Assembly: GCA_039815145.1 (NCBI GenBank)
Contig: JBCBZW010000007.1
Span: forward strand, 1,192-65,191
From: Pseudomonadota bacterium
GTDB lineage: Bacteria; Pseudomonadota; Gammaproteobacteria; Steroidobacterales; JBCBZW01
Direction of reading: 5' to 3'
Length of the DNA: 64,000 bases
Shown: one piece after another, positions 5,743-20,691 of the stretch
Layout: each line of letters begins with the position of its first letter
Numbering within the stretch: position 1 is the stretch's first letter
Translations under genes and position numbers: made by a program
The notes under the pieces: generated by a model
What the model was told of the DNA's origin: nothing
The model's input: the letters and a program-made list of their open reading frames with translations, nothing else
Database searches by the model: none

Positions 5743-6084
5743 TCAGCCGCCGAAGTCGCGCGCACGGCCGGTGCGACGCAGGGCCGCGACGGTCGTGCCG
5801 TCACAGTCCTCCAGGTTGGGTGCCTGCACGGAGCCGTCGCGGGCGACGGTGACGAGCACGGGGTTGGAGGTGAGCGACTTATACAAGGTGGCACCGTCTT
5901 GGATCCGCGCGCTGACGTAGAACACCAGTTGGTCCCAGGGCAGCACCTGCGTTGGGTCGTCGACCGAGCACACGATGACGTCGGGCGCGTCACCGAGCAT
6001 GCCCGCACGCGTCGGCGTGCTCAGGCTGAGCAGACTCGCCGCGATGGCGATGGTGATGGCGAGTGTCAATGGCCTGAAGCGCAT
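5743..6084 (-). CDS. Small secreted hypothetical protein
   Basis: ORF 5743..6099 (TTG). ATG at 6084 with AAGGAC 6 nt upstream. Signal peptide MRFRPLTLAITIAIAASLLSLSTPTRA. The stop TGA lies inside the SD region of the downstream TIMP-like gene, so this is a 2-gene operon. Confidence 0.55.
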   Translation of the reverse strand: MRFRPLTLAITIAIAASLLSLSTPTRAGMLGDAPDVIVCSVDDPTQVLPWDQLVFYVSARIQDGATLYKSLTSNPVLVTVARDGSVQAPNLEDCDGTTVAALRRTGRARDFGG

Positions 6085-6213
6085 GGCGATGTCCTTCAAC
6101 GTGGGAGTCCTTACAGGATAGGTCAGTTGCGCACTGGCGTGGTTCCCCAGCCGTCACGCCCCGGAGGGACTCGTGCGACAATCGGGCGCAGGGGATTACT
6201 AGTGGGGGACGCC

Positions 6214-9437: not shown

Positions 9438-9698
9438 GACCGAGTCAGTCCTTACGCGCAACGAGGGGAATGGCGCCATGCTATGTGCCCGCTCCATTCG
9501 CTCGACATTCGTAGATTTACCTACCGGCATGAAAGCGGAGGTGATTTATTGGTGGTGCGCAGTCGCTCGACGAGCTCGAAGTCGGGCCCTCGATTGAGGC
9601 TTCTACGTATAGCTGGGCGCGAGTGCGTTTTCCTACCATCGGCGCAGACCCACTAACGATAAAGCCGTCGATGGATCGGCGGCGATACAAGGCTCGCC

Positions 9699-10676
9699 AT
9701 GTCTACGCCAATCGCCCGAACGCGTGACGCCCTTGGGGAGTACCCCGCTGGGACCGTCACCAAGTCTCCCCTGTCCGCCGTCGGCGGCCTCCTGTTGCGC
9801 CCTAGAGGTGTTGTCCCCGCGGTGGAGTCGCTCGACGTCGATGCGATCATCGAAGAGGTCAAACGTCGCGGCGCGGTGATGTTGAAGGACTTCGCCTTTG
9901 ACGTCCCCGCCTTCGAACGCTTGTCGGATCGCTTCGCCTGCGAGTTCGTCGACAACCTCGGCAGCGGTTCCCTGCGCGAGACCGTGAACGGCGCGTCCGA
10001 CGGGACCATCCAGAATGTCGCCTACCGCTACGGCCAGGGGCGCCAGCGCACCTTCCCGCTGCCCCTGCACGCGGATCGCGCCTACGTGAAGTCCAAACCA
10101 CAGGCGATGTTCTTCTACTGCCAGCGCCCGGCCTCCCGTGGAGGCCAGACCACGGTGGCCGATGGCTTGAGCGTGTACGAGTGCCTGAGCGATCGAACCC
10201 GCGAGTTGTTCGATACCACGCGGGTGAAGTACATCCGCCACTATGGCGCCGACGAGTGGCCGTTGCTCTACCGCACCGCTGACTTGGATCAGGTGCGCGA
10301 GTACTGCGCCCGCAACGACATGACCCTGCGGGCCAACGCCGACGGCTCCATTCACACGGAGTTCGTCACCAGCGCGGTACCGCTCACGCGTTGGCAACGG
10401 CAACCGGCCTTCTGCAACAGCGTGCAGATCGGCTACTGGCAAGAACACACCCTGCAGCGAAAGATCAACTACGTACGCCTCGAGGATGATCGCGAGATCC
10501 CCGCAGCCGTGATGGCTGAGGTGGACGAGGTGAGCGCCGCGCTCACGGTCGAGGTGCCCTGGGCGAGCGGCGATCTGGTCATGGTGGATAACACCCGCAT
10601 GCTGCACGGTCGCCGTCGCTTCGATGACGAGCAGCGCGCCGTGCTGGTGCGTATGGCCGGGGAGGTGCACTGGTGA
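9699..10676 (+). CDS. TauD/TfdA-family Fe(II)/2-oxoglutarate dioxygenase
   Basis: 325 aa. 'PLPLHADRAY' (HxD iron ligands), 'FFYCQRPASRGGQTTVADG' and 'DNTRMLHGRRRF' (distal His/Arg) are typical of the clavaminate-synthase-like fold. Confidence 0.8.
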   Translation: MSTPIARTRDALGEYPAGTVTKSPLSAVGGLLLRPRGVVPAVESLDVDAIIEEVKRRGAVMLKDFAFDVPAFERLSDRFACEFVDNLGSGSLRETVNGASDGTIQNVAYRYGQGRQRTFPLPLHADRAYVKSKPQAMFFYCQRPASRGGQTTVADGLSVYECLSDRTRELFDTTRVKYIRHYGADEWPLLYRTADLDQVREYCARNDMTLRANADGSIHTEFVTSAVPLTRWQRQPAFCNSVQIGYWQEHTLQRKINYVRLEDDREIPAAVMAEVDEVSAALTVEVPWASGDLVMVDNTRMLHGRRRFDDEQRAVLVRMAGEVHW

Positions 10677-12184
10677 GCACCGTGTCGCCGTCCCTAACGA
10701 AAACGATAGATGAGGGAGTCCCTGCTGTGACGTCTTCGAATGCCGCTGAGTCCCTGCCCGCGTTTCGCTCGCCCACGGCGGGGGACATTCCCGGTCTGCT
10801 CCCGAGCACGACGGCGCCGGCGCCGCCCGCCCCGGTCGTGCAGCCGGACTACACGGCGGCACGCTCGATGCTGGACTTCATCGATCGCATGAGCGAACGC
10901 TTGCGCCCCGGCGCGCAGCGCTTCATCCAGGGCCTGGTGCCCGAGATCCGCGAGACCTATCGCGCCATGCACGTGGCCCTGGACCGCACCAGCGCCGATC
11001 TCGACGAAGTGCGCAGCGCCCTGGCCCTGCTGGCGGCGGGCACCGCACCCGAGCGAGCGGCAGGCGATGGTGCCGTGACGTTGCGAAGCGAACTCGCCGC
11101 GCCCGGCGAACCGCTGGATGACGACCTGGTGGAGGCGGCCTACGCGGGCATACTGACCCTCGCCGAGCGCCTGGGCGGCATGGGATCGGAACGCCTCGTT
11201 GAAGCGATCGAGACAATCGAGCTCGGGTTTCTGGCCCTGGAGAGCGCGTATCGCGAGCAGACCCAGCAGCTGGCCCAAGCGCGGGAGCGCTTGGCGCAGG
11301 GGTGGGCCAAGCGGGCCACGGCATTGCCTGGCCCGGACGACGCCCCGCCGCCGCCTGGCCTCGAGCAGATCAGCCAGTTCGGTCTCACGCCGGATCAGGT
11401 GAGCTTCTTCGAGGAGAACGGCTACGTCGGTCCCATCACGCTCTCCTCACCGCAGGAGATGGCGCGTATCCGACGCTGGATCGACCGCGCCGGTTTCTTG
11501 CACACGGCTTCCCCCATCTACGCCTCGGGATCTCCCCGCGGCTCGGCCGAGGCTCGCGATTGGCACCTGATCTACCCCGAGGTGCACGCGCTGTGCACCC
11601 ATCCGGCCATGGTGGCGGTGATGGAGGCGTTGCTCGGCCCGGATCTGCTCCTGTGGCGCTCCCAGTTCATGCGCAAGGAGGCAGGCGCGCCCGCCCTCGC
11701 GTGGCACCAGGACGGCTCCTTCCCTGGCGGCAAGATGATCCCAGCCTTGAACCCCGTGAAGACGGTCTCGGCCTGGCTCGCGATCGACTCGGCACAGGTG
11801 GATAACGGCTGCGTCTGGGTGGTGCCGGGCTCGCACAAGGGGGAGCTCGAGTACGAGCGTCGTGAGGCGAGCAAGGGGCAGGGCCTCTTCCATCGAGGCT
11901 TCGAAGTGCAGTACGCCATCCCCGAGGAGCAGGCCGTGCCCATGGTGCTCGAGCCGGGTCAGTTCATGGTCTTCGATTGCCAGACCCTGCACGGCTCCAG
12001 CCATAACCCTTCTCCCTGGCGTCGCCTGGGCCTCGCCGCGCGCTACACCAGCGCCGATGTGCGGGTGTACGAGGGGCAGGACGTGGACGGCCAGGGCTAC
12101 GCGCTCGACCGCTTCGGGTGCGTGCTCGTCGCCGGCGAAGATCGCTACGGCCACAACGTGATGGCGCAGGCCCCGAAGGCCTGA
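10673..12184 (+). CDS. PhyH (phytanoyl-CoA dioxygenase)-family oxygenase with ~240-aa unrecognised N-terminal extension
   Basis: GTG start overlaps the upstream TGA (GTGA, 10673-10676). C-terminal half has 'LTPDQVSFFEENGYVGP', 'WHQDGSF' and 'CQTLHGSSHNPS'. The N-terminal half is helical and Ala/Leu/Glu/Arg-rich with Pro-rich linkers. Confidence 0.75.
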   Translation: MSTVSPSLTKTIDEGVPAVTSSNAAESLPAFRSPTAGDIPGLLPSTTAPAPPAPVVQPDYTAARSMLDFIDRMSERLRPGAQRFIQGLVPEIRETYRAMHVALDRTSADLDEVRSALALLAAGTAPERAAGDGAVTLRSELAAPGEPLDDDLVEAAYAGILTLAERLGGMGSERLVEAIETIELGFLALESAYREQTQQLAQARERLAQGWAKRATALPGPDDAPPPPGLEQISQFGLTPDQVSFFEENGYVGPITLSSPQEMARIRRWIDRAGFLHTASPIYASGSPRGSAEARDWHLIYPEVHALCTHPAMVAVMEALLGPDLLLWRSQFMRKEAGAPALAWHQDGSFPGGKMIPALNPVKTVSAWLAIDSAQVDNGCVWVVPGSHKGELEYERREASKGQGLFHRGFEVQYAIPEEQAVPMVLEPGQFMVFDCQTLHGSSHNPSPWRRLGLAARYTSADVRVYEGQDVDGQGYALDRFGCVLVAGEDRYGHNVMAQAPKA

Positions 12185-12312: not shown

Positions 12313-12651
12313 ATGCGCATGATGCTTTCTGCCGCGGCCCTCAGTGTGGCCGGTCTGCTTGCCGCGGGCAGTGCTTCCGCAGCCCTGTTCACCTACGACA
12401 ACAACGGCGGCACCTTCGGCAACGGCGGTTCCTTCAGCAACATCACCTCCACCTACGACGGCGCCAGCGAGCAGCTCACCTGGGTGGTCAGCGATGCCTC
12501 GCGCAATGGCCTGAGCATGGACGGCGCTTGGCTGGTGTTGAGCGACGGCCCGAACCCGAAGCGTGCAGACGTCAACGAGCTCGCCATCTTCTACATGGAC
12601 TTCGTGAACAACCGCATGGCCGTGTCAGGTGCGTGGCCCTTTTCATGGTGA
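12313..12651 (+). CDS. Small secreted hypothetical protein (Gly/Asn/Ser/Thr-rich)
   Basis: ATG 12313 with AAGGAC upstream. Signal peptide MRMMLSAAALSVAGLLAAGSASA/ALF. 112 aa, ending abruptly ('AVSGAWPFSW') 35 nt before the convergent gene. Confidence 0.5.
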   Translation: MRMMLSAAALSVAGLLAAGSASAALFTYDNNGGTFGNGGSFSNITSTYDGASEQLTWVVSDASRNGLSMDGAWLVLSDGPNPKRADVNELAIFYMDFVNNRMAVSGAWPFSW

Positions 12652-19746: not shown

Positions 19747-20691
19747 TCAGACGGCCTCGGCCACGGCGGTCGTGGGCACACGGAGCAGGCGTTCAGCGAA
19801 GAACTCCGTATGCCCGCGTGAGCCCGCAGCAGGGCGCCACAGACTCACCTGCTGGGCGAGGTGGCGAAACGCCTGAGCGGCGCGGGAGGAGGGGTAGGCA
19901 TCGAGGACGTTGATCTGCTGCTGCACGGATTTGCGCAAGTACGGGTCGTGGGGGATGTTGCCAAAGTGGGTCACGGACACATCCAGGAAGCGCTCGCACA
20001 CCCGGGCGATCTTGGTGTAGAGCTGGTTGCCGTGTTCGGCGCCCGCGGTCATGTTGGTCAACACGCGGGCGTGATCCACCCGGTAGTCGCGGCTCAGCAC
20101 CTTGATCAGGGCGTAGGCGTCGGTGATGGACCCGGGGTCGTCGCACACGGTCACCACCACATCGCGCGCGGCTTGAGCGAAGCTGGCCACGTTTTCCGAC
20201 AAGCCCGCCGCCGTGTCGATGATGAGCACATCGACCGGACGGGTGAGCTCGCTGAAGGCGTGGATCAAGCCCGCGCTCTCGCGCGCATCGAGCAGGGCCA
20301 TGCGCTTGTTGCCCGAGGCGGCCGGCACCAGCGTCATGCCCCAGGGGCCCTCCACGAGCACATCCTCCAGGGAGCACTGGCCTTCGAGGACGTTGCTCAG
20401 GGTGTAGCGGGGGTGCAGGCCCAGGTGCACGTCGAGGTTCGCTAAGCCCAGGTCGGCGTCCAGCAGCATGACGCGCCTTCCGCTCATTGCACAGGCGACG
20501 CCGAGGTTGGCTGACACGGTGGTCTTGCCCACGCCGCCCTTGCCACTGGTGATGGCGATCACCTGCACCGGTTGGTTACTCGCCACGCGGCGCAGGCCGC
20601 TGGCCTGGTCTTCCTGCATCCAACCGCCGTCTTGCTGGGGTTGGCGAGGGGCGTGCTGGTCGTTCGGGTTGCTGTCGCTCGGGTCAGGCAC
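19747..20691 (-). CDS. fleN: MinD/ParA-type flagellar number regulator FleN/FlhG
   Basis: Deviant Walker A 'ITSGKGGVGKTTVSANL'. GTG start with GAGGTG SD, overlapping the flhF end by 8 nt. Confidence 0.92.
   Translation of the reverse strand: MPDPSDSNPNDQHAPRQPQQDGGWMQEDQASGLRRVASNQPVQVIAITSGKGGVGKTTVSANLGVACAMSGRRVMLLDADLGLANLDVHLGLHPRYTLSNVLEGQCSLEDVLVEGPWGMTLVPAASGNKRMALLDARESAGLIHAFSELTRPVDVLIIDTAAGLSENVASFAQAARDVVVTVCDDPGSITDAYALIKVLSRDYRVDHARVLTNMTAGAEHGNQLYTKIARVCERFLDVSVTHFGNIPHDPYLRKSVQQQINVLDAYPSSRAAQAFRHLAQQVSLWRPAAGSRGHTEFFAERLLRVPTTAVAEAV

Follow-up and report, generated by a model that had tools for sequence, protein, structure and literature searches.

The Fe(II)/2-oxoglutarate (2OG) oxygenases of the CytC3/SyrB2 clade are the textbook model for the choice that such enzymes make between halogenation and hydroxylation. 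In the halogenases, an Ala or Gly replaces the carboxylate ligand of the metal (HxA/G), thereby freeing a site for the halide. To our knowledge, all characterised members of the clade require a substrate that is tethered to a carrier protein. Here we describe two adjoining oxygenase genes, the second of which encodes a relative of these enzymes, in a stretch of 64,000 nt from a gammaproteobacterial genome of the order Steroidobacterales (assembly GCA_039815145.1, contig JBCBZW010000007.1, positions 1,192 to 65,191). This whole stretch is called the window, and all positions count from its first letter unless a homologous locus (L001 and so on) is named. Gene 1 encodes an oxygenase of the TauD/TfdA family and gene 2 an oxygenase of the PhyH family with an additional N-terminal domain. 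We favour, with moderate confidence, a joint reading in which the pair forms a two-gene cytoplasmic oxygenase module, composed of a TauD-type enzyme and a hydroxylase-type PhyH enzyme fused to a lineage-restricted domain.

The two oxygenases and the start of gene 2

A first-pass annotation of the window had proposed two open reading frames (ORFs) for Fe(II)/2OG oxygenases. Both are present on the plus strand, at 9699-10676 and 10673-12184, and each product has a complete metal and 2OG site. Gene 1 (9699-10676; 325 aa; NCBI MEO0421380.1) matches PF02668 at 125.2 bits (cut-off 27; E = 5.8e-36) over residues 39-319, corresponding to profile positions 16-266 of 267. The two strings taken earlier as TauD ligands lie at residues 123-129 (LHADRAY) and 301-308 (MLHGRRRF), and the metal ligands are H124, D126, and H303 (nt 10068-10070, 10074-10076, and 10605-10607). 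Across 13 homologues, H124, H303, R305, R313, and R318 are invariant. The nearest solved relatives are At3g21360 (PDB 1y0z; E = 1.8e-14) and the sulfoquinovose dioxygenase MaSqoD (PDB 9yut; E = 5e-12; PMC12951627), and the gene 1 triad aligns with the triads of both. Judged by its sequence, gene 1 belongs to the TauD/TfdA family and is At3g21360/SqoD-like within it.

SqoD has a neutral sulfonate pocket with Gln120 and a sugar-binding Trp253 (PMC12951627). The HxD/E...H triad is common to SqoD and gene 1, and the sugar-binding Trp aligns with an invariant W247, whereas Gln120 aligns with an invariant Tyr129. Similarity to the two solved relatives is distant (49-57 bits), and genes of the sulfoquinovose pathway are not found near gene 1. 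Given the change from Gln120 to Tyr129 and a score of 48.8 bits, we rejected the idea that gene 1 is itself a SqoD. Elsewhere in the family, a homologue that is 49% identical to gene 1 (L092, 1-9878) lies directly after genes like those of a polyunsaturated fatty acid (PUFA) synthase, a kind of polyketide synthase (PKS), and before a sulfotransferase gene; this arrangement suggests hydroxylation, then sulfation, of a long-chain product.

The two genes had been thought to be translationally coupled through an overlap. The overlapping GTGA does occur at 10673-10676, with GGAGG before it; gene 2 read from there is the longest ORF (10673-12184, plus strand, 503 aa). Three related loci make its use unlikely. 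In L001 (67% identical protein) and L093 (~79% identical), the TauD gene stops at TAG, without an overlapping GTG. L002 (86% identical) does have the GTGA, but the frame that it opens ends at TAA after 12 codons. All three loci instead have a spacer of 34-52 nt, an AAGGAG-type Shine-Dalgarno site, and a GTG that aligns to window position 10727, and the product of that GTG aligns from residue 19 of the 503-aa ORF. In the window, the corresponding spacer is 50 nt long (10677-10726, plus strand) and contains GAGGGAG at 10712-10718, 8 nt before the GTG. NCBI annotates the identical protein with 485 aa (MEO0421381.1), adjoining MEO0421380.1 for gene 1. Because the spacer, Shine-Dalgarno site, and GTG are conserved in the three relatives, we treat gene 2 as a gene of 485 aa (10727-12184, plus strand) and number it from 10727. 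The likely start is thus the GTG at 10727, 54 nt past the overlap, and the GTGA is an unlikely one. The overlap holds as a sequence, then, but is not supported as a start or a coupling device; the two genes would lie 50 nt apart, each with its own ribosome-binding site, and are probably co-transcribed.

The catalytic half of gene 2 (aa 218-485; 11378-12181, plus strand) is a CytC3/SyrB2-like double-stranded beta-helix domain. PF05721 matches gene 2 at 115.7 bits (cut-off 22; E = 4.6e-33) over profile positions 1-211 of 213, and only at residues 246-451 of the 503-aa ORF. The PhyH strings WHQDGSF and LHGSSHNPS, noted in the first reading, are present, and the Pfam match is confined to the C-terminal half as that reading had it. 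The key residues are H327-Q-D329 (nt 11705-11713), H422 (nt 11990-11992), and R433, together with a C-terminal clade motif, GEDRYGHN. H327, H422, and R433 do not vary across 22 sequences, and D329 is found in all full-length homologues. Among PDB sequences, the catalytic half best matches CytC3 (3gja; E = 1.5e-34) and SyrB2 (2fct; E = 2.7e-25), and a Foldseek search with the gene 2 model returned SyrB2 at E = 2e-21.

Gene 2 thus has the WHQ motif, the distal His, the 2OG-binding Arg, and the C-terminal G-x-D-x-YGHN in common with CytC3 and SyrB2. It differs from them in several ways. First, its WHQD aligns with WHQA in both enzymes, placing D329 opposite the halogenase Ala. Because the carboxylate ligand is kept, gene 2 should catalyse hydroxylation. 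Second, no carrier protein or nonribosomal peptide synthetase (NRPS) is encoded nearby. Third, it carries an extra N-terminal module of 217 residues, which no halogenase has. A hydroxylase within the CytC3/SyrB2 clade is not surprising in itself, since 84 of 97 relatives in GTDB loci carry HQD. Halogenase-type motifs also occur among the relatives: P0015 (317 aa) has WHFG, and in a Leptolyngbyaceae metagenome-assembled genome (MAG), three paralogues encoded in tandem carry WHRA, WHQT, and WHRA (L013, 9015-11786).

The N-terminal domain of gene 2

The N-terminal module starts with a disordered tail (aa 1-40; 10727-10846, plus strand), which includes a Pro/Ala-rich stretch and has a predicted local distance difference test score (pLDDT) of 35-50. 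Within it lies the motif FRSPTAGDIPGL (aa 13-24; 10763-10798, plus strand). Its consensus, FRxPxxxDIPGL, is found in all homologues whose N-terminus is present, including those in which the N-terminal domain is only ~35% identical. The tail is followed by a helical-bundle domain (aa 41-200; 10847-11326, plus strand) with helices at 42-56, 61-104, 132-150, and 155-195, and then by a Pro-rich interdomain linker, LPGPDDAPPPPGLEQISQ (aa 201-217; 11327-11377, plus strand), which varies among homologues and has a pLDDT of 54-72. Invariant in the bundle are M81, D86, A90-D91-L92, E94, G113-D-G115, V117, L119, Y139, L145, S154, R156, E162, I164-E165, L169, L171, and E172. They include six carboxylates on helices 2 and 4 (D86, D91, E94, E162, E165, and E172), and Y139 and an S154-x-R156 turn are further conserved features.

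We modelled gene 2 with AlphaFold2, at full length from an alignment of 22 sequences and also as the N-terminal domain alone. The full-length model has a mean pLDDT of 79.9 and a predicted template modelling score of 0.79, and residues 1-36 are disordered. The four helices of the bundle have a pLDDT of ~90, and the same helices appear when the domain is modelled alone. In contrast, the pLDDT of the invariant GDGxVTL segment (113-119) is 83 in the full-length model versus 47 in the model of the domain alone, a difference that suggests that this segment may lie at the interface between the two domains.

The first-pass annotation had described this region as helical and unlike anything recognised, and had pointed out that it might not be translated at all. 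Translation and purifying selection are evident from several observations. Over 217 codons, the ratio of nonsynonymous to synonymous substitution rates (dN/dS) relative to the 86% identical protein of L002 is 0.06. The GC content at third codon positions (GC3) is 0.85 in frame, compared to 0.75 and 0.55 in the other frames. Seven further sequences (P0002, P0003, and P0004-P0008) have the domain; they are 55-86% identical to the window protein over their full length and 34-82% identical in the N-terminal region, with 21 invariant columns.

The description as an orphan helical region also stands for the ~215-235 N-terminal residues, which are helical with Pro-rich segments. Neither Pfam nor NCBIfam has a match to the N-terminal domain, these collections matching only the catalytic domains of the two proteins, and a profile search of PDB sequences gave nothing below E = 0.3. 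Foldseek searches of PDB and BFVD, a check that the annotation had proposed, returned no significant fold (best E = 0.08); the matches were elongated bundles of a generic kind, several of which are dimerisation modules. When searched against 1.84e9 representative proteins, the N-terminal profile found its own family and one fragment (P0085), apart from two sequences that we set aside as repeat artefacts, P0086 (FN3 repeats) and P0087 (HAMP-like repeats). The domain was found in none of 185,579 GTDB species representatives, the best matches there being 43% identical and limited to the catalytic domain; scanning 241 million metagenome records yielded one further locus. The family is tiny, about ten sequences among 15 billion proteins, and is known only from uncultured Pseudomonadota. 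We conclude that gene 2 represents a known kind of enzyme, the PhyH oxygenase, in a new architecture with a lineage-restricted N-terminal domain.

We also considered whether the bundle could be a degenerate carrier protein. This was rejected, as an hhalign comparison with the 133-aa acyl carrier protein (ACP) of a related gene cassette described below gave a probability of 0.2%.

Linkage and surroundings of the pair

Separation of the two genes in related genomes had been named as a result that would count against a joint function. We grouped the PhyH genes with the N-terminal domain into five distinct genomic contexts. In the first (the window and L093), an opposite-strand hemN is followed by TauD and then PhyH. 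In the second (L002 and L003), the order is FAD oxidase, TauD, PhyH, and a TPR-GGDEF protein; in the third (L001), it is PepQ, TauD, and PhyH. The fourth (L005) has a gene for a Glu/Asp-type solute-binding protein, then PhyH, then a convergent TauD homologue (50% identical) downstream. In the fifth (L004 and L006), PhyH stands on 6-kb contigs without TauD, adjoined by genes for a 393-aa protein and a glycosyltransferase. TauD therefore adjoins the PhyH gene in four of the five contexts, once on the opposite strand. The adjacency in four contexts, the unrelated flanks, and the one inversion argue for a functional link, and we consider the linkage of the two genes, as read from these loci, to be real but not obligate.

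The neighbours (PepQ, the Glu/Asp-type solute-binding protein, the FAD oxidase, the TPR-GGDEF protein, the glycosyltransferase, and the 393-aa protein) show no consistent theme. The gene for the 393-aa protein (L004, 1899-3080; L006, 1758-2939; both on the minus strand) is divergent from the PhyH gene, has no Pfam or NCBIfam match, and adjoins a Caps_synth-type glycosyltransferase gene.

Relative to the window, the PhyH genes of L002 (11115-11300) and L003 (2434-2620), which represent the closest relative, have a 5-nt deletion (GCAAG). The resulting frameshift parts the HxD half of the active site from the half with the distal His, and P0003 is the frameshifted product of these two loci. Because the deletion is found in two independent assemblies, it probably marks a real pseudogene.

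In the window, the pair does not differ from the surrounding sequence in GC content (0.62-0.70) or GC3 (0.84-0.87). Upstream lies a radical S-adenosylmethionine gene, hemN, on the opposite strand. Its divergent orientation, noted in the first reading, is borne out by a family match and by comparison with L093, where the hemN homologue begins at the residue aligned with residue 32 of the window ORF. The start of hemN is probably at ~9437 on the minus strand, leaving an intergenic region of 9438-9698 before gene 1. In this region, we found no sigma-70-like promoter, FNR-like box, or Rfam match. A ZMP/ZTP riboswitch match inside a coding region (E = 0.63) was dismissed as chance. In the window as a whole, there are 18 FNR-like palindromes (TTGATNNNNATCAA, up to 2 mismatches) versus 5.9 expected, e.g., at 20549, 22773, 24219, and 24780; these lie mostly inside flagellar coding regions and none is in the hemN/TauD intergenic region, and codon composition is a possible cause of the excess. 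At the far end of the pair, a weak terminator-like hairpin (12167-12183, plus strand; 6 pairs, broken T-run) overlaps the stop codon of gene 2. It is only suggestive, because such sites are no more numerous than expected from shuffled sequence.

Beyond hemN are a gene for an FAD oxidoreductase with what reads in the sequence as a signal of the twin-arginine translocation (Tat) type and a gene for a large FG-GAP/He_PIG protein. Two minus-strand genes sit between these two: 5743-6099 encodes a protein of 118 aa whose hydrophobic N-terminus resembles a signal peptide and which is conserved in L002 (6365-6706), and 4681-5739 encodes a 352-aa protein with a similar N-terminus and no Pfam match. Downstream of the pair are a gene remnant, an opposite-strand pair for an aldehyde-oxidase-type molybdoenzyme, a TetR gene, and a methyltransferase gene, and a flagellar gene cluster occupies the window from ~18 kb on. 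The remnant (12314-12651, plus strand) had been called a small secreted protein gene. A gene does lie at this place, but what it encodes is the N-terminal part of a PEP-CTERM protein, cut short: over its first ~104 residues it matches a protein of this kind that is 231 aa long in L002 (13869-14564), and the sequence then diverges and ends just ahead of the convergent molybdoenzyme gene. The divergence and early stop suggest truncation by rearrangement.

Family scans of the neighbouring genes found no transporter, dedicated regulator, or NRPS/PKS beside the pair, in agreement with the earlier description. They also found no carrier protein there, and no PP-binding gene from 0 to 29 kb of the window or in L001-L006. 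PADLOC gave no defence-system match for either protein.

Possible roles of the pair

Some indication of the substrate comes from the nearest clade that has the catalytic domain without the N-terminal bundle (P0010-P0014; L007, L008, and L063). These proteins of 375-389 aa are 43-51% identical to gene 2 over the catalytic domain and have the same HQD and C-terminal motifs. Unlike gene 2, they lack the bundle and have instead a C-terminal extension of ~100 residues, and they are always encoded in a cassette for an ACP, two ketosynthases (KS), and an LpxL-like acyltransferase, an acyl-carrier/ketosynthase lipid context that is absent at the window locus. The cassette (L007, 3857-9096; L008; L063, 6007-13041) comes from a Blastocatellia MAG (L063) and from metagenomes. 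It comprises genes for the 133-aa ACP, the two ketosynthases, the LpxL-like acyltransferase, the HQD-type PhyH, a sulfatase-family protein, and a phosphodiesterase, and looks like a lipid-tailoring pathway. Literature searches on an ACP-KS-KS-PhyH cassette and on a hydroxylase branch of the SyrB2 clade found nothing specific, and gave no function for the cassette. Together with the halogenase relatives, the cassette points to an ancestry of gene 2 on carrier-tethered acyl or aminoacyl substrates. Weak hints also come from the TauD homologue (49% identical) beside PUFA-type PKS and sulfotransferase genes and from the Glu/Asp-type solute-binding protein gene that precedes PhyH in L005. From these comparisons, and with low confidence, we favour a small acyl/lipid-like or amino-acid-derived molecule as the substrate.

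In the joint reading, each enzyme would hydroxylate an unactivated C-H bond with the help of Fe(II), 2OG, and O2, and the two would share a metabolite or work on intermediates that follow one another. The N-terminal domain, with its tail motif, its acidic bundle on two ~40-residue helices, and its Pro-rich linker, would pack on the catalytic domain through the GDGxVTL loop and serve for oligomerisation or docking. In the closest relatives, positioning depends on a carrier protein, and the domain may do this in its place.

Several observations weigh against this account. TauD homologues of 48-60% identity are mostly solitary or lie beside PUFA-type PKS and sulfotransferase genes, and the PhyH lineage of L004 and L006 shows no TauD on its 6-kb contigs; thus, the two enzymes may work independently. 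Because most TauD homologues have no PhyH partner, the wider TauD family seems to be accompanied by PhyH only occasionally, as an accessory. In L002 and L003, where the active site is split by the frameshift, the PhyH gene appears to be dispensable. No carrier, acyl-activating enzyme, or lipid gene is found near any member of the family with the N-terminal domain (L001-L006 and the window). Finally, since the fold matches of the domain are not significant, its proposed role is drawn from its shape and from pLDDT differences alone.

The alternative that the two oxygenases are functionally unrelated, their adjacency reflecting the shared ancestry of a few related gammaproteobacterial genomes, is possible but unlikely. 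It would fit with the origin of all pair loci in a few high-GC environmental Pseudomonadota MAGs and metagenomes, and with the unpartnered TauD homologues and the lack of a nearby TauD in L004 and L006. However, the adjacency has outlasted a full replacement of the flanks (hemN, FAD oxidase, PepQ, or the solute-binding protein) and, at identities of only 50-58%, a change in the orientation of TauD with respect to PhyH.

Gene 2 might instead hydroxylate a protein or peptide, with the bundle recognising the protein in the way of the TPR domain of AspH, or with the X-Pro-Gly of the tail acting as a substrate or an autoinhibitory pseudo-substrate. Accessory helical domains are typical of protein-modifying 2OG oxygenases. 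The tail holds a conserved short linear motif in a disordered segment, and a peptide-acting PhyH member, ThoJ (6zyk), is among the PDB matches at E = 5e-16. In outline, gene 2 also resembles AspH, in which a helical non-catalytic domain is fused to a 2OG oxygenase, although the AspH domain is made of TPR repeats, its oxygenase belongs to another subfamily, and neither its sequence nor its fold is related to the gene 2 bundle. We nevertheless judge a protein substrate to be rather improbable: among characterised relatives, the closest have small tethered amino acids rather than proteins as substrates, AlphaFold2 leaves the tail (pLDDT ~35) undocked from the active site, and no candidate substrate protein is conserved beside the gene in L001-L006.

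A bolder proposal is that the N-terminal domain is a built-in device for substrate delivery or docking that replaces the carrier protein or, failing that, that the enzyme hydroxylates a protein, possibly at its own X-Pro-Gly tail motif. If the domain were such a device, a cationic ligand, a metal, or a partner protein might bind the stripe of six carboxylates and the GDGxVTL loop. We hold this proposal to be doubtful, and it is put forward as a speculation.

It is very improbable that gene 2 is a halogenase of the CytC3/SyrB2 kind. JGI names several homologues "halogenase", and the best NCBIfam model for gene 2 is TIGR01762 ("chlorinating enzyme"), but the score, 130.8 bits, falls far short of the cut-off (226.3), Asp329 stands where halogenases have Ala/Gly, HQD prevails among the relatives, and no carrier is encoded nearby. 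The idea that the N-terminal region is untranslated and the real protein a standard PhyH enzyme of 270 aa can be set aside almost entirely, for although P0009 (294 aa, 56% identical) and all more distant relatives lack the domain, the region is kept with invariant motifs in seven homologues, has the dN/dS and GC3 values given above, begins with a conserved Shine-Dalgarno site and GTG, and has a confident AlphaFold2 fold.

We therefore return to the joint reading, a TauD-type enzyme encoded beside a hydroxylase-type PhyH enzyme with an N-terminal domain of its own. Gene 2 could show the native hydroxylase scaffold of the CytC3/SyrB2 clade, and, as a natural Asp-bearing relative without a carrier context, it could show how a substrate is positioned carrier-free. 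If the N-terminal domain does prove to be a docking device, gene 2 would represent the first carrier-independent hydroxylase lineage of the clade and a new mode of substrate presentation.

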